A program made the position numbers and the translations under genes. Below the pieces are notes generated by a model. That model worked only from the letters and a program-made list of their open reading frames with translations, did not search any database and had not been told where the DNA came from. A DNA stretch of 64,000 nucleotides, from positions 3,844 through 67,843 of the forward strand of contig CAVPUD010000060.1 of the NCBI GenBank assembly GCA_963708545.1, in the 5' to 3' direction. Positions 3,760 through 63,051 of this stretch are shown here, piece after piece (the first letter of the stretch is position 1; each line of letters starts with the position of its first letter). Origin of the DNA: an uncultured beta proteobacterium (GTDB lineage: Bacteria; Pseudomonadota; Gammaproteobacteria; Burkholderiales; Burkholderiaceae_C).

Positions 3760-3834
3760 ACGGGCCGGCGGCATGGAGCGCGGTGCTGCAGGCGCGCTGG
3801 GTTGCGGTGCGCCGCAGGGGCGGGAAATCCCCAA

Positions 3835-3851
3835 TGCACCAATGCAGTGAA
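3835..3851. promoter_or_regulatory. Putative NtrC-binding site
   Basis: TGCACC-AATGC-AGTGAA resembles TGCACC-N5-GGTGCA, about 80 bp upstream of the sigma54 promoter. Confidence 0.5.
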
Positions 3852-3997
3852 TGCGCTTACAGTCCCCATCACTCGAAAGCGCTGCCTGCGCCAAACGAGG
3901 GAGCCGAGGAGACACCCACAAGCACACAATCCTTTCCAAGCGCCCCATGAGGTGCACTTTTTCCAGCGTCGGTGATCCCGGCGCTTTTTTTTTGCCA

Positions 3998-4051
3998 AAA
4001 ATGCGGAAAAGTCCAGCTGCATCGTGCGTTGGATGCTCTTCAGTCGGTAGC
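3998..4051 (+). repeat. 54-bp dispersed motif copy (degenerate, upstream of TauE gene)
   Basis: aaaatgcgg-aaaagtccagctgcat-cgtgcgttgga-t-gctct tcagtcg gtagc; same spacing as other copies. Confidence 0.55.
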
Positions 4052-4076
4052 TTTTTGGGGCGGCGACAATACCTGC

Positions 4077-4835
4077 ATGGAATGGATTGCGATGGCGCTC
4101 GCCGCCCTGCTCGCGGGTTTTGTCGATGCCATCGTCGGTGGCGGAGGGCTGGTGCTGCTGCCGGCCCTGTTTGCGGCTTTTCCGCAGGCGGCTGCGGCGA
4201 CCCTGCTGGGCACGAACAAGGCCACCTCGGTGTGGGGCACGGCCATGGCCACCTGGAATTACAGCCGGCGCGTGCCGCTGCGCTGGAGCGCCATGCTGCC
4301 CGCCGCGGCAGCCGCGTTCCTGGCGGCGTGGGCTGGAGCCTGGGCTGTCACCTTGATCCCCGGAGATACGCTGCGCCGGCTGCTGCCCCTGGTATTGCTC
4401 GCCGTGCTGCTCTATACGCTCTCTAAAAAAGAGCTTGGAAGGTCGCATACACCTAGGTATTCAGGCAAAAATGAGGCTATTTTTGCGAGCCTGATCGGCG
4501 CGGGCGTCGGCTTTTACGATGGTTTTTTCGGGCCTGGGACGGGCAGCTTTTTCATCTTTTTGCTCGTGCGCGTACTCGGGTATGACTTTCTGAACGCCTC
4601 GGTGTCGGCCAAGCTGCTCAACTTTGCGAGCAATGTCGCCGCGATCCTGCTGTTTGCGAGCAAAGGCCACGTGTGGTGGCCACTCGCGCTCACGCTGGGG
4701 GCAGCCAACGTGCTGGGCAGCGTGCTGGGCACCCATCTGGCGCTGCGACACGGAGCCGGCTTCGTGCGCGGTATTTTCATCGCCGTGGTGGGCGTTTTGA
4801 TTTGCAAGACAGGGTGGGATGCTTTCCTGCGCTGA
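4077..4835 (+). CDS. Sulfite exporter TauE/SafE family membrane protein
   Basis: AGFVDAIVGGGGL, GFYDGFFGPGTGSF motifs; hydrophobic. Confidence 0.92.
   Translation: MEWIAMALAALLAGFVDAIVGGGGLVLLPALFAAFPQAAAATLLGTNKATSVWGTAMATWNYSRRVPLRWSAMLPAAAAAFLAAWAGAWAVTLIPGDTLRRLLPLVLLAVLLYTLSKKELGRSHTPRYSGKNEAIFASLIGAGVGFYDGFFGPGTGSFFIFLLVRVLGYDFLNASVSAKLLNFASNVAAILLFASKGHVWWPLALTLGAANVLGSVLGTHLALRHGAGFVRGIFIAVVGVLICKTGWDAFLR
4418..4471 (-). repeat. 54-bp dispersed motif copy inside TauE CDS
   Basis: Reverse complement tttttgcct-gaatacctaggtgtat-gcgaccttcca-a-gctct tttttag agagc; perfect 5-bp arms; run of rare codons. Confidence 0.65.
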
Positions 4836-4884
4836 AAGCCGGGCCTGCGCAGCGACCGCTGCGATTGCCGCGAGTTTTTGACAG

Positions 4885-4912
4885 GGCAATTTCAAGTCCG
4901 AAGTGCAACACC
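4885..4912 (+). mobile_element. Probable left inverted repeat of an IS30-family element
   Basis: GGCAATTTCAAGTCCGAAGTGCAACACC resembles IS1086-like IS30 ends (from memory) and precedes an IS30 transposase N-terminus once the MITE is removed. Confidence 0.55.
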
Positions 4913-4927
4913 ACCCTATCAGATAAA

Positions 4928-5164
4928 CCTAAATCCGGCAGTTGACCGCTGCATTTTTGTATGCAACTCTTTGATTTTTCGAATGATTTTTACGTTGCGA
5001 GACGCACCCATCGGGTCAGAGCGCTGCGCACCCGATCGCGCCGCCCTCGGGCACGCTGGCCGCGTTGCAAATCCTCGCCATGGCACCCGCCATGGCTGCG
5101 GTTTGCGCCTTGCCAGTGCACCCGATGACGACACGCTCGGGCGCGCTCAACTGCCGGATTTAGG
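4928..5164 (+). mobile_element. MITE copy 1 (237 bp)
   Basis: 18-bp TIR CCTAAATCCGGCAGTTGA / TCAACTGCCGGATTTAGG; flanks ATAAA / TTAAA (4 of 5 match); no transposase. Confidence 0.92.
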
Positions 5165-5177
5165 TTAAATTGCGCAG

Positions 5178-5327: not shown

Positions 5328-5476
5328 GCGGCTTTGTCGCACTGCTCAAGGATTCGTCGCTGGCCTGTGCGATCGGCGTGGTCGAGCGCACCAGCGTGGG
5401 CAACCGCATCCAGTCGGCCGCATTCCAGCCCGTTGCTGTCGGCGCAGGCGCTGACACCTTGTTTCATGCGCTCTGA
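5324..5476 (+). pseudogene. C-terminal remnant of polar amino-acid ABC transporter permease
   Basis: VSGFVALLKDSSLACAIGVVERTSVGNRIQSAAFQP resembles the permease C-terminal LLKDSSL..IG..EL pattern; no N-terminus present. Confidence 0.7.
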
Positions 5477-6338
5477 ACGTGGCGGCCTGCTGGCCATGCT
5501 GGCCCTGCTGATCGTGACCGTGGTCTGGGGCACGACCTTTCCGGCGATGAAGCTGCTGTCGGCGCAGCTCGACGCGCTGCAGATCATTTGGTTGCGCTTT
5601 GCCATCGCTTCGCTCGTGCTCGCGCCGCTGTGGCACAGCATGCGCGGCCCCGAGCGCGCGTGGGGCGGCCTGCTCGGGGCCTTGCTGTTCGTCGCGTTTT
5701 GGCTGCAGATCGAGGGGCTCGCGCGCACCAGCAGCAACCGCAACGCCTTCGTCACGGGGCTCAACGTGCTCGGGGTGCCGCTTTTGGCCATGCTGGTGCT
5801 GCGGCGCCGCTATGGCTGGCGTCTGTGGGCAGCCTGCGCCCTGGCCGGCGCGGGCATGGCACTGATGTTCCACGAGGACGCGCCCTGGAATTTCGGCGAC
5901 ACGCTCACGCTGGTGAGCGCGCTGTTTTATGCGCTCTACGTCCTCGCGCTCGAAGAGTGCGCGCGCCACACGGCGGCGCAGCCGCTGCGCGCCACGCGCA
6001 TGGCCACGGTGCAGGCGGGCGTGATGTGCGCTGCCGCGACGGCGTTGCTGCTCGCGCGCGGCAGCGGCCTGGGCTGGCTTGCGTCGCTCGGGCGCCTCGA
6101 CGCCACAAGCTGGGGTGCGCTGCTGTATCTCGGGCTTGTCGCCAGCGTGCTCGTCGTGATTTTGCAAGCCTGGGGGCAGCAGCGCGTCGATGCCGTGCGC
6201 AGTGCCATCGTGTACGGGCTCGAGCCGGTGTTCGCCGCGCTCGCCGCGTGGGCGCTGCTGGGCGAGCGGCTTGGCTGGACGGGCAGCGCGGGCGCGGCGC
6301 TGATCGTGGCTGCGCTGGTGCTGAGCCAGTTACCCTAA
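5466..6338 (+). CDS. DMT/EamA family transporter
   Basis: VVWGTTFPAMK, GDTLTL, AIVYGLEPVFAA; stop codon lies inside MITE copy 2. Confidence 0.92.
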   Translation: MRSERGGLLAMLALLIVTVVWGTTFPAMKLLSAQLDALQIIWLRFAIASLVLAPLWHSMRGPERAWGGLLGALLFVAFWLQIEGLARTSSNRNAFVTGLNVLGVPLLAMLVLRRRYGWRLWAACALAGAGMALMFHEDAPWNFGDTLTLVSALFYALYVLALEECARHTAAQPLRATRMATVQAGVMCAAATALLLARGSGLGWLASLGRLDATSWGALLYLGLVASVLVVILQAWGQQRVDAVRSAIVYGLEPVFAALAAWALLGERLGWTGSAGAALIVAALVLSQLP

Positions 6339-6570
6339 ATCCGGCAGTTGAGCGCGCCCGAGCGTGTCGTCATCGGGTGCACTGGCAAGGCGCAAACCGC
6401 AGCCATGGCGGGTGCCATGGCGAGGATTTGCAACGCGGCCAGCGTGCCCGAGGGCGGCGCGATCGGGTGCGCAGTGCTCTGACCCGATGGGGGCTTTTCG
6501 CAGAGTGAAAAATCATCGGAAAAATCAAAGAGTTGCATACAAAATGCAGCGGTCAATTGCCGGATTTAGG
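6334..6570 (-). mobile_element. MITE copy 2 (237 bp, reverse orientation)
   Basis: Same TIRs (one mismatch); perfect 5-bp TSD GTTAC at 6329-6333 and 6571-6575. Confidence 0.95.
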
Positions 6571-6603
6571 GTTACAGTCGCCGCCCTCGCGCAAGTCCTG
6601 ATC

Positions 6604-19182: not shown

Positions 19183-19821
19183 ATGCTCCACTACCGCACC
19201 ATCCCCGTCACGCCTTTCCAGCAGAACTGCTCCATCGTCTGGTGCGATGCCACGCACGAGGCGGCGCTCATTGACCCGGGCGGTGACATCGACGTGTTGC
19301 TCGCCGAGGCTCGGCGTCTGGGCGTCGAGCCCACGCAAATTTGGCTCACGCACGCGCACATAGACCACGCCGGCGGTGCGGGCGAGCTCGCGCAGCGCCT
19401 GGGCATCCCCATCATCGGCCCGCATCCGGGCGACCAGTTCTGGATCGACGGCCTGGCGCAGCAAAGCGCGGCCTTCGGCTTTGCGCCCGCCGTGCCGTTC
19501 ACGCCCACGCGCTGGCTGCACGACGGCGACAGCGTGCAGGTCGGCCACGAAACGCTGCACGTGCGCCACACTCCGGGCCACACGCCCGGCCACGTGGTGT
19601 TCCACGCGCCGCAGATCGACCGCGCCTTCGTCGGCGACGTGCTGTTCGCGGGCAGCATCGGGCGCACGGACTTTCCGGGCGGCAACCACCAGCAGCTCAT
19701 CGACAGCATCGTCAGGCGTCTGTGGCCCATGGGCGACCAGACGGTGTTCATCCCCGGCCACGGGCCCGAGAGCACCTTTGGGCGTGAGCGGCGCAGCAAC
19801 CCGTTCGTGGGCGGCACTTGA
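19183..19821 (+). CDS. MBL-fold metallo-hydrolase (YcbL/glyoxalase II-like)
   Basis: THAHIDHAGG, HTPGHTPGH, GDVLFAGSIGRTD. Confidence 0.93.
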   Translation: MLHYRTIPVTPFQQNCSIVWCDATHEAALIDPGGDIDVLLAEARRLGVEPTQIWLTHAHIDHAGGAGELAQRLGIPIIGPHPGDQFWIDGLAQQSAAFGFAPAVPFTPTRWLHDGDSVQVGHETLHVRHTPGHTPGHVVFHAPQIDRAFVGDVLFAGSIGRTDFPGGNHQQLIDSIVRRLWPMGDQTVFIPGHGPESTFGRERRSNPFVGGT

Positions 19822-19845
19822 GCTACGCGCCGAGGATTTTGGATA

Positions 19846-19899
19846 AAAAGTGCCATTAGCCCAGGCGGGACAAGCGCAAGCAGCTATCGTTTGGAGAGT
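19846..19899 (+). repeat. 54-bp dispersed motif copy overlapping the mpl 3' end
   Basis: aaaagtgcc-attagcccaggcggga-caagcgcaagc-a-gctat cgtttgg agagt. Confidence 0.85.
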
Positions 19900-21299
19900 T
19901 CTTCGAGCAGCTTGGCGTGCACGCCGCCAAAGCCGCCGTTGCTCATGCACACGATGTGGTCGCCCGCCTGCGCGGCCTGTACGATCTGGCGCACCAGGGT
20001 GGCGATGTCGGGCGCGGTCTGCGCGCGTGGGCCCAGCGGTGCGAGCGCCTCGCGCGCGTCCCAGTCCAGGCCGCCGGTGTGGCAAAAGGCCAGGTCGGCC
20101 GGCTCCAGGGCCCAGGGCAGCTGCGCCTTCATGGTGCCGAGCTTCATGGTGTTGCTGCGCGGCTCGAACACGGCCAGGATGCGTGCCTGCGACTGGCCCG
20201 CGGCATCGAGCTGGCGGCGTAGGCCGTCGAGCGTGGTGCGTATCGCCGTGGGGTGGTGCGCGAAGTCGTCGTACACCGTGACTTCGCCGCCCGCCAGCGC
20301 CACGCGCCCGCGCAGCTCCATGCGGCGCCGCACGTTCTGAAAGCCCGCGAGCGCCTGCGCCGCCAGCGCCACCGGCACGCCCACGTGCTGCGCCGCCGCG
20401 ATGGCCGCGAGCGCGTTGAGCTGGTTGTGCACACCCGTGAGCGACCAGACCACGCGCCCCTGCGGTGCGCCTTGCACGAGCACGTCGAAGGCCTGCGGCG
20501 CGCCCGCGGCGCAAAAATCGCTCACCGCGGCGCCAAAGCTGCGCACCTCGCTCCAGCAGCCCTGGTGCAGCACGCGCGTGAGGCTCTCCTCGAGGCCGTT
20601 GACCACCACGCGCCCGGCAGCCGGCACGGTGCGCAGCAGGTGGTGGAACTGGCGCTCGATCGCGGCCAGGTCGTCGAAGATGTCGGCGTGGTCGAATTCG
20701 AGGTTGTTGAGCACCGCCGTGCGCGGGCGGTAGTGCACGAACTTGCTGCGCTTGTCGAAAAAGGCCGTGTCGTACTCGTCGGCCTCGATCACGAACAGCG
20801 GCCGCGGCTGCCCCGGCGCCTGCGCGCCCAGGCGCGCCGAAATGCCGAAATTCAGCGGCACGCCACCCACCAGAAAGCCCGGCGTGAGCCCTGCGCTTTG
20901 CAAAATCCAGGCGAGCATGGAGGTCGTGGTGGTCTTGCCGTGCGTGCCCGCCACGGCCAGCACGTGGCGGCCTTGCAGCACGTGCTCGGCCAGCCACTGC
21001 GGGCCGCTGGTGTAGGGCAGGCCCGCATCGAGGATGGCTTCCATCAAGGGAAATTTGGGCGCTCCGTCGGCCAAGCGCGCGCGGCTGACCACGTTGCCCA
21101 CCACGAACATGTCGGGCGCGAGCGCGAGCTGGTCGGCGTCAAAGCCTTCGATCAGCTCGATGCCCAGCGCGCGCAGCTGCTCGCTCATGGGCGGATAGAC
21201 GCCCGCGTCGCAGCCCGTGACCTTGTGTCCGGCCTCGCGCGCTAGCGCGGCCACGCCGCCCATGAAAGTGCCGCAAATGCCCAGAATGTGGATATGCAT
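19884..21299 (-). CDS. mpl: Murein peptide ligase
   Basis: MHIHILGICGTFMGG, AGTHGKTTT, EADEYDTAFFDKRSKF, DDFAHHPTAI. Confidence 0.97.
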   Translation of the reverse strand: MHIHILGICGTFMGGVAALAREAGHKVTGCDAGVYPPMSEQLRALGIELIEGFDADQLALAPDMFVVGNVVSRARLADGAPKFPLMEAILDAGLPYTSGPQWLAEHVLQGRHVLAVAGTHGKTTTTSMLAWILQSAGLTPGFLVGGVPLNFGISARLGAQAPGQPRPLFVIEADEYDTAFFDKRSKFVHYRPRTAVLNNLEFDHADIFDDLAAIERQFHHLLRTVPAAGRVVVNGLEESLTRVLHQGCWSEVRSFGAAVSDFCAAGAPQAFDVLVQGAPQGRVVWSLTGVHNQLNALAAIAAAQHVGVPVALAAQALAGFQNVRRRMELRGRVALAGGEVTVYDDFAHHPTAIRTTLDGLRRQLDAAGQSQARILAVFEPRSNTMKLGTMKAQLPWALEPADLAFCHTGGLDWDAREALAPLGPRAQTAPDIATLVRQIVQAAQAGDHIVCMSNGGFGGVHAKLLEELSKR

Positions 21300-21324
21300 G
21301 GCGGGGCATTGTAATCTTGGAGCC

Positions 21325-21378
21325 AAAATGGCCGTTTGTGCAGATGTATCAAGCGCAAGAAGCTACCAAAAAAGTAGC
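21325..21378 (+). repeat. 54-bp dispersed motif copy upstream of mpl
   Basis: aaaatggcc-gtttgtgcagatgtat-caagcgcaaga-a-gctac caaaaaa gtagc. Confidence 0.88.
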
Positions 21379-21474
21379 TTTTCCGTAGCCTTTGCGGGGC
21401 TGCGGGCCGGGTATGGCGCAGGGCCGCGGGTTCGCGCCACAATGCGGGCTGCACATTCCTACCGCTGCCCTGCC

Positions 21475-23265: not shown

Positions 23266-23273
23266 GGCGGCGC

Positions 23274-23631
23274 ATGTTCCAAAAGATACTGATCGCCAAC
23301 CGCGGCGGACATGCCGCAGGCATGGCGAAGCAAATTGCCCTGGCACGCGCAGCGTGCGGGCGATGAGCCGCGGGAGAAACCATGTTCAAAAAAATACTGA
23401 TCGCCAACCGCGGCGGACATGCCGCAGGCATGGCGAAGCAAATTGCCCTGGCACGCGTAGCGTGCGGGCGATGAGCCGCGGGAGAAACCATGTTCAAAAA
23501 AATACTGATCGCCAACCGCGGCGGACATGCCGCAGGCATGGCGAAGCAAATTGCCCTGGCACGCGTAGCGTGCGGGCGATGAGCCGCGGGAGAAACCATG
23601 TTCAAAAAAATACTGATCGCCAACCGCGGCG
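23274..23631 (+). repeat. Tandem 108-bp repeat (3 units plus the accC 5' end), each unit a 30-aa mini-ORF
   Basis: ATG starts at 23274, 23382, 23490 and 23598 (period 108); mini-ORFs 23274-23366, 23382-23474, 23490-23582 read MF(Q/K)[22 protein letters not shown](A/V)ACGR*. Confidence 0.97.
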
Positions 23632-28180: not shown

Positions 28181-28558
28181 TCAAGGCTTGCTGCCCGTCG
28201 GGAAGGGCCAAGCTGCCTGGGGATTGAGAGTGGTCTGGGCGGGAACGGATGCCTTGGCTGCCTTCTTCGCAGGTGCGGCAGCTTTCTTCGCAGGTGCAGC
28301 AGCCTTCTTCGCAGGTGCAGCAGCCTTCTTCGCAGGTGCAGCAGCCTTCTTCGCAGGTGCAGCAGCCTTCTTCGCAGGTGCAGCAGCCTTCTTCGCAGGT
28401 GCGGCAGCTTTCTTCGCAGGCGCGGCAGCTTTCTTCGCAGGTGCAGCAGCCTTCTTCGCAGGTGCGGCAGCTTTCTTCGCAGGCGCGGCAGCTTTCTTCG
28501 CAGGCGCTTCGGTCTTCATGGCCTGGGATGCGGCGGGTTTTTTTGCAGTTGCCATCAT
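28181..28558 (-). CDS. Histone H1-like nucleoid protein with PAKKAAA repeats
   Basis: 11 full plus 1 partial PAKKAAA repeat; C-terminal TLNPQAAWPFPTGSKP. Confidence 0.9.
   Translation of the reverse strand: MMATAKKPAASQAMKTEAPAKKAAAPAKKAAAPAKKAAAPAKKAAAPAKKAAAPAKKAAAPAKKAAAPAKKAAAPAKKAAAPAKKAAAPAKKAAAPAKKAAKASVPAQTTLNPQAAWPFPTGSKP
28256..28504 (-). repeat. 21-bp coding tandem repeat (about 12 units)
   Basis: (GCAGCAGCCTTCTTCGCAGGT)n with minor variants. Confidence 0.95.
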
Positions 28559-28747
28559 GTTCTCCTTGGGTCGATGTGTTGTGCGCGCCGCACTCCTACG
28601 GTGAGCGGGCAGCAGTTAGAACCTGTTCTCAGGCGTGGAGGCCGATCCCTCCCGCATGAACACGAAAAACGCCCCACCTGGTGCAACACAAGACAATGCA
28701 GTGATGGCAGGTGCGATAGTCATGGCTTTTGTCTGCACCCGACGGGA

Positions 28748-37121: not shown

Positions 37122-37343
37122 TCACGCAGTGCGCGGCAGGTGTGCCGCCGAGCAATAAAACTTTCCGTCCTGCACCAGGGCTTCGGAGCGCGGCAGGTGC
37201 ACGCCGCAGTGCGCGCAGGCCACCATGCTTTCAGGGGCCGCGCGCCGAGGCGGGACAGACTTGGAGCGGGAGGCAGGCGCCTGTTGGCTGCGCCACCAGG
37301 CCGCGCCCACAGCCACGACGATGAGCACGAGCAGGTACTTCAT
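37122..37343 (-). CDS. PP0621-family small protein
   Basis: TM helix then MVACAHCGVHLPRSEAL...YCSAAH. Confidence 0.88.
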   Translation of the reverse strand: MKYLLVLIVVAVGAAWWRSQQAPASRSKSVPPRRAAPESMVACAHCGVHLPRSEALVQDGKFYCSAAHLPRTA

Positions 37344-37493
37344 CCTAAATCCGGCAGTTGAGCGCGCCCAAGCGTGTCGTCATCGGGTGCGCAGCGCTCT
37401 GACCCGATGGGTGCGTCTCGCAGAGTGAAAAATCATTCAAAGAATCAAAGCGTTGCATACAAAAAAATACAGCGGTCAACTGCCGGATTTAGG
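37344..37493 (-). mobile_element. MITE copy 3 (150 bp, internally deleted)
   Basis: Same TIRs; 90-bp deletion between ATCGGGTGC direct repeats; flanks TTCAT / TTTAT. Confidence 0.92.
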
Positions 37494-37494
37494 T

Positions 37495-38292
37495 TTATAC
37501 GCTGCGGTGTAAAACGACTTCGAGCACGAAGCGCGAGCCCACGTAAGCCAGCAGCAGCAGCGCGGCGCCCGCATACAGCACACGCACGGCGCTGCGCCCG
37601 CGCCAGCCAAAGCGTGCGCGCCCGAGCAGCAGCACGGCAAAGGTGAGCCAGGACAGCAGCGAGAACACCGTCTTGTGGTCCCAGCGCCAGGCGCGCCCGT
37701 ACAACTGCTCGCCAAACAGCATGCCCGCGAGCAGCGTTGCCGTGAGCAGCGCGAAGCCCGCCGCGACGAAGCGAAACATCAGGCGCTCGAGCGTGAGCAG
37801 CGGCATGCCACTGTCTGGGTCTTGGCCCTGGCGGATGCGGCGCTCCGCGCGCGTCATGAGCCAGGCGTGCACCACTGCGGCGGCAAACAGGCCATAGCAG
37901 GCGATGCCCAGCGCCAGGTGCAGCGGCAGCCAGGCGGATGCCGTGGCATGCAGTGGCTGGCCCGGAAACAGCTGTGCGAGCAGCAAGCTCAGCGCCGCCA
38001 AGAGCGCCAGCATCCAGCGCGCGCGCAGTTGCGGGAACAGCTGGCGCTCGATGGCGTACACCGTGAGCGCAAGCCAGGCCGTCATCGACAGCGCCGGCGC
38101 AAAGCCAAAGCGCGGCGCCTCGCCCCACAGCCCCCAGCCGAGCGCCGCCGCGTGCAGCAGCCAGGCCGGGCGCAAGGCGCGCCGCGTCCAGCCCTCGCGC
38201 AGCCGTGCGCCCGCGAGCGCCGGAGCGGCGTAGGCCAGCGCCGCCGCGAGCGACAGCAGCCAGCCGATCGGAGAGGCACTCGGTAAAATCAT
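37495..38292 (-). CDS. CcsA/YpjD-like inner membrane protein (cytochrome c assembly family)
   Basis: PLHLALGIACYGLF, WRWDHKTVFS; divergent from ffh. Confidence 0.88.
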   Translation of the reverse strand: MILPSASPIGWLLSLAAALAYAAPALAGARLREGWTRRALRPAWLLHAAALGWGLWGEAPRFGFAPALSMTAWLALTVYAIERQLFPQLRARWMLALLAALSLLLAQLFPGQPLHATASAWLPLHLALGIACYGLFAAAVVHAWLMTRAERRIRQGQDPDSGMPLLTLERLMFRFVAAGFALLTATLLAGMLFGEQLYGRAWRWDHKTVFSLLSWLTFAVLLLGRARFGWRGRSAVRVLYAGAALLLLAYVGSRFVLEVVLHRSV

Positions 38293-38419: not shown

Positions 38420-39796
38420 ATGGCCTCCGCCCTCACTGACAAACTCTCGCGCCTCGTCAAAGAAATGCGCGGCCAGGCCCGCATCACCGAATCCAACGTG
38501 CAGGACATGCTGCGCGAAGTGCGCATGGCCCTGCTCGAAGCCGACGTGGCCCTGCCCGTGGTGCGCGACTTCATTGCGCGCGTCAAGGAAAAGGCGCTGG
38601 GGCAGGAGGTGCTGGGCAGCCTCAAGCCCGGCCAGGCGCTGGTGGGCATCGTGCACCGCGAGCTCGCCGCCACCATGGGCGAGGGCGTGTCCGACCTGAA
38701 CCTGGCCACGCAGCCGCCTGCCGTGATCCTCATGGCCGGCCTGCAAGGCGCGGGCAAGACGACGACCACGGCCAAAATCGCCAAGCACCTGATCGAAAAA
38801 CGCAAGAAAAAAGTGCTCACCGTCTCGGGCGACGTGTACCGGCCTGCAGCCATAGAGCAGCTCAAGACCGTGACGCGCCAGGCCGGGGCCGAGTGGTTTC
38901 CGAGTTCGCCCGAGCAAAAGCCGCTCGAGATCGCGCGCGCCGCGCTCGACTACGCCAAAAAGCACTACTTCGACGTGCTGCTGGTCGACACCGCGGGGCG
39001 CCTGGCGATCGACGAGGCGCTGATGCAGGAGATCAAGGAACTGCACGCGGCGCTGCAGCCGGTCGAAACCTTGTTCGTCGTCGATGCCATGCAGGGGCAG
39101 GACGCCATCAACACCGCGCGCGCCTTCAAGGAGGCGCTGCCGCTCACGGGCATCGTGCTCACCAAACTCGACGGCGACGCGCGCGGCGGTGCGGCGCTGT
39201 CGGTGCGCCAGATCACGGGCGCGCCGATCAAGTTCGCGGGCGTCTCGGAAAAAATCGACGGCCTCGAAGTGTTCGACGCCGAACGCCACGCGGGCCGCGT
39301 GCTGGGCATGGGCGACATCGTCGCGCTGGTCGAGCAGGTCACGGCCAACGTCGATCTGGATGCCGCGCAAAAACTCGCCGCCAAGGTCAAGAGCGGCAAT
39401 GGGTTCGACCTCAACGACTTCCTCGCGCAGATTCAGCAGATGAAGCAGATGGGCGGGCTCTCCAGCCTCATGGACAAGCTGCCCACGCAACTGAGCGCGC
39501 AGGCGGGCAAGGTCGATATGGGCAAGGTCGAAAAAGACATACGCCGCAAGGAAGGCATCATCCAGAGCATGACGCCGCTCGAGCGCCGCAAGCCCGACGT
39601 CATCAAGGCCTCACGCAAAAAGCGCATCGCCCAGGGCGCGGGCGTGCAGGTGCAGGAGGTCAACCGCCTGCTCAAGGAATTTGAGCAGATGCAGGAAATG
39701 ATGAAAAAAATGAAGGGCGGCGGCCTGATGAAGATGATCAAGAAAATGGGCGGTATGAAAGGCCTGGGCGGCGGCATGCCCAAGATGCCGTTCTGA
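38420..39796 (+). CDS. ffh: Signal recognition particle protein
   Basis: GLQGAGKTTT, DTAGR, TKLDGDARGG, Met-rich C-terminus. Confidence 0.98.
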   Translation: MASALTDKLSRLVKEMRGQARITESNVQDMLREVRMALLEADVALPVVRDFIARVKEKALGQEVLGSLKPGQALVGIVHRELAATMGEGVSDLNLATQPPAVILMAGLQGAGKTTTTAKIAKHLIEKRKKKVLTVSGDVYRPAAIEQLKTVTRQAGAEWFPSSPEQKPLEIARAALDYAKKHYFDVLLVDTAGRLAIDEALMQEIKELHAALQPVETLFVVDAMQGQDAINTARAFKEALPLTGIVLTKLDGDARGGAALSVRQITGAPIKFAGVSEKIDGLEVFDAERHAGRVLGMGDIVALVEQVTANVDLDAAQKLAAKVKSGNGFDLNDFLAQIQQMKQMGGLSSLMDKLPTQLSAQAGKVDMGKVEKDIRRKEGIIQSMTPLERRKPDVIKASRKKRIAQGAGVQVQEVNRLLKEFEQMQEMMKKMKGGGLMKMIKKMGGMKGLGGGMPKMPF

Positions 39797-39817
39797 CGGC
39801 TTCTGAAATTTCAAGCC

Positions 39818-39871
39818 ATTTTGGCCTCTAGCGCACATCCAGAAAGCGCTTTCAGCTATTAATACAGCAGC
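39818..39871 (+). repeat. 54-bp dispersed motif copy between convergent ffh and lysE-like genes
   Basis: attttggcc-tctagcgcacatccag-aaagcgctttc-a-gctat taataca gcagc. Confidence 0.88.
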
Positions 39872-39889
39872 AAAAGCCGGGTGGAACAC

Positions 39890-45814: not shown

Positions 45815-45913
45815 GACCCCAGATTGTCCATGAGGCAGCATGAAAGAGCGGTGGGATACGGGCGGACAGAGTGGCGCGGCGCATGCTGCAAACCCGGCTG
45901 GGCCTAGCATGAT

Positions 45914-46150
45914 CCTAAATCCGGCAGTTGACCGCTACATTTTGTATGCAACTCTTTGATTCTTCGAATGATTTTTCACTCTGCGAGACTCACCCATCGG
46001 GTCAGAGCGCTGCGCGCCCGATCGCGCCGCCCTCGGGCACGCAGGCCGCGTTGCAAATCCTCGCCATGGCGCCCGCCATGGCTGCGGTTTGCGCCTTGCC
46101 AGTGCACCCGATGACGACACGCTCGGGCGCGCTCAACTGCCGGATTTAGG
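45914..46150 (+). mobile_element. MITE copy 4 (237 bp)
   Basis: Perfect TIRs; perfect TSD ATGAT at 45909-45913 and 46151-46155. Confidence 0.95.
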
Positions 46151-46320
46151 ATGATAAACAGGCCTCGTCCCCTGGCCGGGCAGACCGTGCCGCTGCCGTG
46201 ACGGCGGCCAGCGCGCACGCTACGCCGGCAATGATCGGATAGGATGCAAGCTGGGCCGGCGCGCAATGCCACGGCGCTCTGGTTCCCCCCTCTTTCCAAC
46301 GACTTCAGGAGACGCCCCCC

Positions 46321-48125: not shown

Positions 48126-48167
48126 GCTTGTCTCCTGTGCCGTGCGCTTGCGGCGCCCACCAAAAAT

Positions 48168-48221
48168 GCTATGTTAAATATAGCTTCTTATGCTTGATGG
48201 ACGGGCACAAATGCCCATTTT
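48168..48221 (-). repeat. 54-bp dispersed motif copy (intergenic)
   Basis: Reverse complement aaaatgggc-atttgtgcccgtccat-caagcataaga-a-gctat atttaac atagc. Confidence 0.88.
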
Positions 48222-48240
48222 TGCCTTTGAAGTCTATAGT

Positions 48241-62238: not shown

Positions 62239-63051
62239 ATGCCCGACAAGACCAAGCCCATTTCGGCGACCACAGGCCAAGTCCCCGCCATGCTGCTCGC
62301 CGCAGGCCGCGGCGAGCGCATGCGCCCTTTGACCGACCACACGCCCAAGCCCCTGCTGCGCGTGCAGGGGCGCCCGCTGCTCGAATGGCACCTGCGCGCG
62401 CTCGCCGCGGCGGGCGTCACGCGGGCCGTCATCAACACCGCCTGGCTGGGGGAGCAGATCAGCGCGTATTTTTCAGATCATTTTGCCATCCAAGGCAATA
62501 CTGACGGTCGCAAGCAGCTATCGATTTCATACTCACACGAGGGCCGCGACTTCGGCGCCGCGCTCGAAACGGCGGGTGGCATCGCGCGCGCGCTGCCGCT
62601 GCTGGGGCCGGTGTTCTGGCTCGCGGCGGGCGACGTGTTCGCGCCCGACATCGCCTTTGCCGCCGCCGAGGTGCAGCGCTTTGCCGCGAGCGACTACCTG
62701 GCGCACCTGTGGCTGGTGCCCAACCCTGCGCACCATCCGCGCGGCGACTTCGGCCTCTCGCCCGAGGGCCTTGCGCGCAACCTGCCGCCGCAAGACCCCG
62801 CGCCGTGCTACACCTACAGCACCATCGCCCTGCTGCGCGCCGAGCTCTTCACGCCGCCCTGGTGCGACATCCCGCCCGGAAACCCCGCCGGCCTGGCCGC
62901 GCCCCTGGCCCCCCTGCTGCGCCGCGCCATGGACCAGCACCGCGTGAGCGCCGCGCTCTACACCGGCCGCTGGACCGACGTGGGCACGCCCGAGCGGCTC
63001 GCGGCGCTGAATGAGCTGGCTGACAGCGGCACCAAAACAGCGGCCCCATAG
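62239..63051 (+). CDS. murU: Nucleotidyltransferase (MurU-like N-acetylmuramate alpha-1-phosphate uridylyltransferase)
   Basis: AMLLAAGRGERMRPLTDHTPKPLL, LETAGGI, WTDVGTPERL. Confidence 0.85.
   Translation: MPDKTKPISATTGQVPAMLLAAGRGERMRPLTDHTPKPLLRVQGRPLLEWHLRALAAAGVTRAVINTAWLGEQISAYFSDHFAIQGNTDGRKQLSISYSHEGRDFGAALETAGGIARALPLLGPVFWLAAGDVFAPDIAFAAAEVQRFAASDYLAHLWLVPNPAHHPRGDFGLSPEGLARNLPPQDPAPCYTYSTIALLRAELFTPPWCDIPPGNPAGLAAPLAPLLRRAMDQHRVSAALYTGRWTDVGTPERLAALNELADSGTKTAAP
62480..62533 (+). repeat. 54-bp dispersed motif copy inside murU
   Basis: attttgcca-tccaaggcaatactga-cggtcgcaagc-a-gctat cgatttc atact. Confidence 0.8.

Follow-up and report, generated by a model that had tools for sequence, protein, structure and literature searches.

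The window, by which we mean the whole stretch of 64,000 nucleotides that was analysed, comes from a 2.98-Mb genome (G000) with a GC content of 65.8%, and its first part holds a tauE/safE-family gene preceded by a short repetitive element and containing an unusual run of codons. The features of this locus are:

3984-4058, + strand: decayed repeat copy upstream of tauE, its end 19 nt short of the tauE start codon (weight matrix 9.7; nhmmer 7.3 bits)
4077-4835, + strand: tauE/safE-family (TSUP) predicted permease gene (open reading frame of 252 aa plus stop)
4413-4485, + strand: full extent of an AT-ward patch, codons 113-136, ~72 nt (codon alignment with orthologs and outgroup consensus)
4418-4434, no strand: palindrome GCTCT-CTAAAAA-AGAGC, a single match in the window
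4422-4472, + strand: 17-codon rare-codon island, codons 116-132, peptide SKKELGRSHTPRYSGKN (GC3 and codon log-likelihood)
4463-4484, no strand: second small palindrome, GCAAAAAT-GAGGCT-ATTTTTGC, seen in folds

The tauE product matches Pfam PF01925 (TauE/SafE) with 164.4 bits (cut-off 32.6; E 4.6e-48) over residues 7-244 of 252, and is accordingly predicted to be a full-length member of this family, above the curated cut-off. No homolog of solved structure was detectable by sequence. Orthologs of the same length are present in 208 of the 301 sampled genomes of the family, and the protein of Extensimonas perlucida HX2-24 is 99% identical to that of the window. Between G000 and a sister species (G001), tauE has diverged more rapidly than the genes set beside it, with 43% of identical-residue codons differing versus 14-21% in tlyA, waaA and nadE, and with a protein identity of 84% versus 90-97%. 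Directly downstream of tauE, an EamA-family gene (5334-6338) is bracketed by two inverted-orientation copies of a ~240-nt MITE-like element with terminal inverted repeats CCTAAATCCGGCAGTTGA, which is found in the window at 4923-5170, 6329-6574, 37339-37497 and 45909-46154. Tandem repeats also occur in the window, at 28194-28571 and 23273-23631, comprising a 21-nt array (at least 13 units) and three 108-nt units.

The island falls in the hydrophilic loop that separates TauE's two hydrophobic halves. The 17 codons that the initial annotation had quoted as rare (TCT AAA AAA GAG CTT GGA AGG TCG CAT ACA CCT AGG TAT TCA GGC AAA AAT) were found at 4422-4472, in the frame of the open reading frame 4077-4835, and its description of an AT-rich island in a GC3-rich gene proved accurate, with 5 of 17 codons ending in G or C compared with a GC3 of 0.79 in the rest of the gene. 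Likewise, GC content is 0.45-0.50 at the island versus 0.65-0.80 in the first half of tauE, and GC-rich sequence is back immediately past 4485. Eight of the 17 codons each account for <10% of their own synonymous family in this genome, with TCT, CTT, GGA, AGG, ACA, CCT and TCA each making up 3-8% genome-wide. The log-likelihood of the codon choice is -51.0 bits, 6 SD below a genome mean of -19.6 (sd 5.2), and windows as extreme as this number 66 among 464,899 (1.4e-4), counted over frame-checked windows. An unfiltered census of AT-rich or rare-codon windows, based on open reading frames, had contained many artefacts that were in the wrong frame or driven by amino acid content, and the filters were then tightened. 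Rare-codon density at the island is far above the genome background.

We gathered tauE orthologs from relatives, GTDB genomes and metagenomes. All 224 full-length orthologs are ungapped across the loop, and the peptide is homologous position by position, following the pattern K-K-[ED]-L-G-R-x-H-x-P-R-[FY]-x-G. The initial annotation had proposed that the peptide is the ordinary TauE loop and that nothing had been inserted; both points are borne out, as the length-conservation check shows no indel. A/T-rich codons are present in all four Extensimonas species sampled (GC3 of 5, 7, 8 and 7 of 17), and in these four both loop arginines are encoded by AGG or AGA versus CGN in every other ortholog. 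No similar island was seen in the ~220 orthologs outside Extensimonas, in which the lowest loop GC3 values, 7-10 of 17, belong to genes with low overall GC3. Furthermore, the difference between loop GC3 and rest-of-gene GC3 averages -0.039 over 186 outgroup orthologs, and across these no positional conservation of a rare-codon cluster was seen in the TauE family. A selective explanation related to folding is weakened by this, because the family at large has no rare-codon cluster at the loop.

At 28 of its 51 nt the island departs from a consensus built on 191 outgroup orthologs; 22 of these changes are GC-to-AT and one is AT-to-GC, while other 51-nt bins of tauE show 6-18 differences from the same consensus, 2-7 of which are GC-to-AT. 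Both arginine codons changed from CGC to AGG or AGA, and the amino acid replacements in the island are conservative (Ala to Ser, Arg to Lys). The island is thus a real, genus-specific AT-ward patch that arose without a change in length. Since 22 changes run from GC to AT and one the other way, and since the arginine codons went from CGC to AGG/AGA, whatever caused it must have acted at the level of DNA or RNA and not on the protein.

Within the genus the individual bases of the island vary freely (AGG/AGA, CCT/CCA/CCC, TCA/TCT/TCC), with AT-richness kept. Depressed synonymous substitution, which the initial annotation had expected here, was not seen: in the most distant Extensimonas pair 7 of 13 identical-residue codons differ inside the island versus 85 of 198 elsewhere, and closer pairs give 2/16 versus 18/233 and 2/12 versus 38/224. 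Amino acid change among Extensimonas is higher in the island than elsewhere. Normal synonymous divergence with no retention of the motif was the outcome named beforehand as contradicting the proposal, and it is what we found, but the test is of little power. True in-frame repeat copies in tlyA, waaA and nadE (argF being left out of this control) also show no depression, with synonymous differences of 16/92 versus 195/1424, so the synonymous rate cannot separate copies from non-copies. Of the proposal that a motif was written over the gene by codon choice, the codon choice, the conservative replacements and the lack of an insertion therefore stand, while ongoing selection at the DNA level is unsupported, synonymous divergence not being depressed.

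The motif in question is a ~70-nt element with the consensus CAAAATTTTGAGTCAAATTGGCCTCTAGCGCTTGTGCATCAAGCGCTAGCAGCTATCAATTTAGTAGC. It is composed of an A/T-rich left module (AAAWTGGCC), a first hairpin (HP1) with covarying arms around an invariant core, CAAGCGC-N3-CAGCTA, and a small second hairpin (HP2; AGCTAY-N6-8-RTAGC). Searched with an iterated nhmmer profile, the 2.98-Mb genome yields 284 copies at a threshold of E<1e-5 and 341 when this is relaxed to E<1e-3; by weight matrix, 419 copies score at least 10. No Rfam match was obtained in the whole window. The core sequence was not found in the literature searched, in which the repeat appears to be undescribed. Each Extensimonas genome has 60-74 exact core matches, five other genera (G005, G009, G010, G020 and G023) have 24-416, and the remaining sampled genomes have 0-2, with none in most of them. 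Further copies in the window, with nhmmer E-values from 2.5e-16 to 2.5e-3, are:

1874-1988, + strand: repeat copy
19806-19909, + strand: repeat copy
21309-21385, + strand: repeat copy
39795-39883, + strand: repeat copy
48147-48231, - strand: repeat copy
62466-62538, + strand: repeat copy (weak)

Two of the window's repeat copies flank mpl. A second, degenerate copy that the initial annotation had placed upstream of the island turned out to be genuine. Located at 3984-4058 on the + strand, it has a weight-matrix score (9.7) attained at no position of the reversed genome, and the orthologous site before tauE carries copies of 25.9 bits in G001, 20.5 in G002, 18.2 in G020 and 11.3 in G023, which includes clear ones in the sister species (G001, G002) as well as copies in other genera. 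Judged by these sequences, we regard the upstream element as a genuine, old and decaying copy of the repeat.

One explanation of the island is a partial overprint limited by protein constraint, according to which the process that writes the repeat into Comamonadaceae genes without indels hit the loop of tauE, reversed and in phase 1, and left a coreless imprint, with only bases compatible with the conserved G-R-x-H-x-P-R residues persisting. We consider this rather unlikely. The proposed reading of the island as the motif in reverse was not confirmed: the best register is the one originally proposed (minus strand, 4411-4485), but it scores -18.1, against 27-79 in true copies. With true copies masked and hits collapsed to loci, the interval [-20,-15) holds 64 weight-matrix loci in the real genome versus 52 in the reversed genome, and a score like that of the island is expected by chance about once per 64-kb window; a score at this genome-wide chance level argues against an overprint. 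Likewise, nhmmer run with --max and E<=1000 on positions 3900-4900 reported the upstream copy and not the island. The core CAAGCGC-N3-CAGCTA(Y) is absent from the island, and in the best register AAGCGC stands opposite CGACCT (1/6 identical) and AGCTA opposite AGCTC (4/5). What the element conserves most strongly is thus missing, and no module is significant alone, with +0.6 bits for the left module (p 0.46), -28.8 for HP1 and core (p 0.08) and +10.1 for HP2 (recoding p 0.08).

The changes themselves are not directed towards the motif either. Derived bases equal the motif-preferred base at 13 of the 35 changed sites in the 75-nt register, with 12.5 expected when only the A/T-or-G/C class of each change is kept. 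A search for a donor among the repeat copies found none, the best match being 39/75 compared with a null of 36.6 +/- 1.6 (p 0.11), and the repeat consensus in the orientation and phase of tauE would place an in-frame TAG stop. In the repeat-bearing G005, G009, G010, G020 and G023 the orthologous island sites score from -45 to -94, although the first four have 24-153 core matches per genome, whereas the sites of true copies (nadE, waaA and upstream of tauE) are usually common to several genera; at the tauE site, none of the other repeat-bearing genera has a copy. Furthermore, a single conversion would have destroyed the conserved residues, and under a gradual drive the core would be expected to come first. 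A blastn-short search of the genome for other sequence resembling the island returned only chance words of 13-19 nt.

What does look like the repeat can be traced to the native peptide. The perfect GCTCT-N7-AGAGC palindrome described in the initial annotation is present at 4418-4434, and a 5+5 palindrome of this form occurs in 13 of 100 shuffles of the window. It is composed of the codons ACG CTC TCT AAA AAA GAG CTT, which encode the native T-L-S-K-K-E-L; outgroup TauE proteins natively carry L-A-K-K-[ED]-L, and the 13 true in-frame copies of the same register encode L-x-K-x-E-L. The HP2-like palindrome would thus result from a native L-x-K-K-E-L written in A/T-ending codons (CTC TCT AAA AAA GAG CT), and we attribute the island's resemblance to the repeat to its AT-richness together with this palindrome. 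The arms of the second palindrome (4463-4484) are Lys AAA and Phe TTT codons. No significant structure of the island was detected, with fold z-scores of -0.08 as RNA and -1.26 as DNA. Taken together, these sequence comparisons indicate that the tauE island is neither recognisable as a copy of the 70-nt repeat nor a functional one.

The points in favour of a partial overprint include repeat copies inside other genes. Of the 419 copies, 90 lie in frame in genes with normal codon usage on both sides, many of these genes being essential; they use five of the six orientation and phase classes, and 13 share the orientation and phase that an overprint in tauE would have. Copies of G000 referred to here are:

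C105:12698-12794: in-frame copy in nadE (E 1.5e-15), encoding PGFKENLLFVQVQQAQAAIKMDA
C111:17279-17359: in-frame copy in argF (E 1.4e-15)
C69:4482-4567: copy in waaA, a true insertion of ~22 residues
C50:21973-22066: copy in tlyA, a true insertion of 8-12 residues
C147:15897-15997: copy in mutS
C119:2710-2795: copy in purL
C38:9302-9392: copy in cobQ
C69:23071-23146: copy in hrpA

Apart from gaps of 3 and 1 residues, the peptide of the nadE copy can be matched residue by residue to the NadE structures from Burkholderia thailandensis (4f4h) and Acinetobacter (5kha), and the argF copy has 18 codons in place of 15 ancestral ones (+3 aa). In nadE and argF the repeat has, as these alignments show, been written into the gene almost without a change in length, and because of such nearly length-neutral copies the general idea that a motif can be overprinted into coding sequence is right for the repeat family, but it is not supported for the tauE island itself. 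The existence of these copies, and of 13 in the matching orientation and phase, speaks for a partial overprint, as does the patch length of ~72 nt, which is near that of the element. Furthermore, of the 22 most extreme rare-codon loci in the genome 13 are repeat copies, with one more by weight matrix, and most of the remainder are wrong-frame or tandem-repeat artefacts. At a looser cut-off, the clusters in 46 of 87 genes are repeat copies, with ~7 more by weight matrix. Most of the extreme rare-codon clusters within genes are thus repeat copies, which again favours an overprint; the remaining coreless islands are not motif-like as a class.

Support also comes from synonymous recoding that kept the peptide and the A/T-or-G/C ending of each codon, in which the observed motif score was reached in 0.4-0.7% of trials (p ~0.005), although calibration on random coding windows showed this test to be about two-fold anti-conservative. 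We regard this result as suggestive. A second coreless, genus-specific and synonymous island of similar size was found in pheT:

C11:1569-1649 (G000): coreless AT-ward island in pheT, with ~16 purely synonymous GC-to-AT changes

The 27-residue peptide encoded there is nearly invariant between genera, and three Extensimonas species carry the changes, which G005, G009 and G020 lack. Its weight-matrix score is -25 and its recoding p is 0.055, and as a parallel to tauE it too lends something to the overprint. That the tauE and pheT islands are both coreless 'ghost' imprints of the repeat-overprinting process, made without indels, seems to us rather doubtful. If this were true, the process would work base by base or in very short tracts filtered by protein constraint, and the repeat family would reshape the codon usage of essential genes even where no recognisable copy is left.

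A short homologous-recombination patch from an unsampled, lower-GC tauE allele, followed by neutral persistence and slow amelioration, would account for a burst of change that is sharply bounded, falls on one branch, affects synonymous and replacement sites together and leaves the length unchanged, and the divergence within the genus fits neutral decay of an ancestral patch (GC3 of 5-8 of 17). We nevertheless think it improbable, since none of ~220 orthologs has similar nucleotides, AGG/AGA arginines or the peptide S-KKELGR-S/Q-HTPRYSGKN, and in a DNA search of 400 genomes of the family the GC-rich flank was all that matched beyond the genus. Recombination requires flanking identity, and here a 70-nt tract would have had to be exchanged between alleles ~30% diverged, without such identity.

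We think it equally improbable that the patch is a regulatory DNA site within the gene that has no connection to the repeat, be it a promoter (internal or antisense) or a place where a nucleoid or regulatory protein binds by way of the ACCTAGGT or GCAAAAAT-N6-ATTTTTGC palindromes. Promoters and AT-seeking proteins do act at AT-rich DNA when the genome is 66% GC, and two small perfect palindromes lie within the patch. However, a consensus scan found no sigma-70-like site on either strand at 3800-5000, the four species differ freely in the bases of the patch, chance alone should give about one 8-bp palindrome of fixed spacing per window, and the island has no other copy in the genome.

Several further candidates were rejected: an insertion, by the ungapped 252-aa orthologs, and likewise an inserted in-frame repeat like the Rickettsia palindromic elements, there being no extra residues relative to 224 orthologs; another repeat family, as blastn-short finds chance words and there is no relation to the neighbouring 240-nt MITE; an RNA family, with no Rfam match in the whole window; a sigma-70 promoter, by the negative consensus scan of both strands at 3800-5000; a foreign donor allele, none being present in ~220 orthologs or 400 family genomes; cytosine-deamination hypermutation, as transitions are mixed with transversions when ancestral and derived strings are compared by eye; and a programmed -1 frameshift at T-AAA-AAA-G, for which P-site re-pairing is poor, the heptamer is unconserved outside the genus and there is no stimulator.

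The reading we favour, tentatively and at a little less than even confidence, is that the island is an Extensimonas-specific patch at the codon level, unrelated to recognition of the motif, with a possible local slow-down of translation that was either selected or is a relic. On the stem branch of Extensimonas, ~72 nt of the loop gained about two dozen GC-to-AT point changes, synonymous or conservative, with the conserved K-K-E/D-L-G-R-x-H-x-P-R residues kept, and the four species inherited the patch. Any present-day effect would plausibly be at the codon or mRNA level only, through some of the rarest codons in a weakly structured, A/U-rich stretch, and a cluster placed at the hinge between two four-helix halves may slow ribosomes locally. 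The patch could have been selected for this slow-down, or it could be the neutral relic of a one-off event.

Taken alone, this cluster of rare codons in the loop of a transporter, confined to one lineage, is a minor curiosity. Its value is as a clean test case for whether rare-codon clusters matter in the folding of membrane proteins built of two halves, and as a boundary case for in-frame overprinting by a repeat with ~420 copies, 90 of them in genes, where it marks the limit of detection. It also shows which tests discriminate: the profile score, the presence of the core, the direction of the derived changes and the search for the nearest donor do so, and the synonymous rate does not.

Among known systems, the DNA uptake sequences USS and DUS build up within coding sequence through point mutation combined with biased uptake (Findlay and Redfield 2009, PMC2817400). 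As with these, a motif could enter genes without indels, through codon choice where the protein permits; unlike these, whose cores of 9-12 nt are retained, the tauE island misses precisely the core. Rickettsia palindromic elements, among other repeats fused in frame into genes, are insertions that make the protein longer (Ogata et al. 2000, cited in Delihas 2011, PMC3184786). The island resembles them in being repeat-like sequence within an intact, functional-looking tauE open reading frame, and differs from such insertions in that no length difference exists in 224 orthologs.

With the 70-nt Comamonadaceae repeat itself the island has in common a similar length, its AT-richness, an HP2-like palindrome at the matching position, the lack of an indel, and an orientation and phase shared with 13 copies. 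It differs from the repeat in having no core, HP1, profile match or donor, in a score at chance level, and in its absence from the other genera that bear the repeat.

Clusters of rare codons situated in protein loops and linkers, those of membrane proteins included, have been proposed to act as translational pause sites. Conserved clusters of this kind are defined by a position kept across a whole family, whereas the tauE island belongs to one genus only and is absent from 186 orthologs. It is like the pause clusters in its dense run of the rarest codons (AGG twice, GGA, TCA, TCT, ACA, CTT and CCT), in its place in a hydrophilic loop between two halves, and in a protein that is essentially kept.
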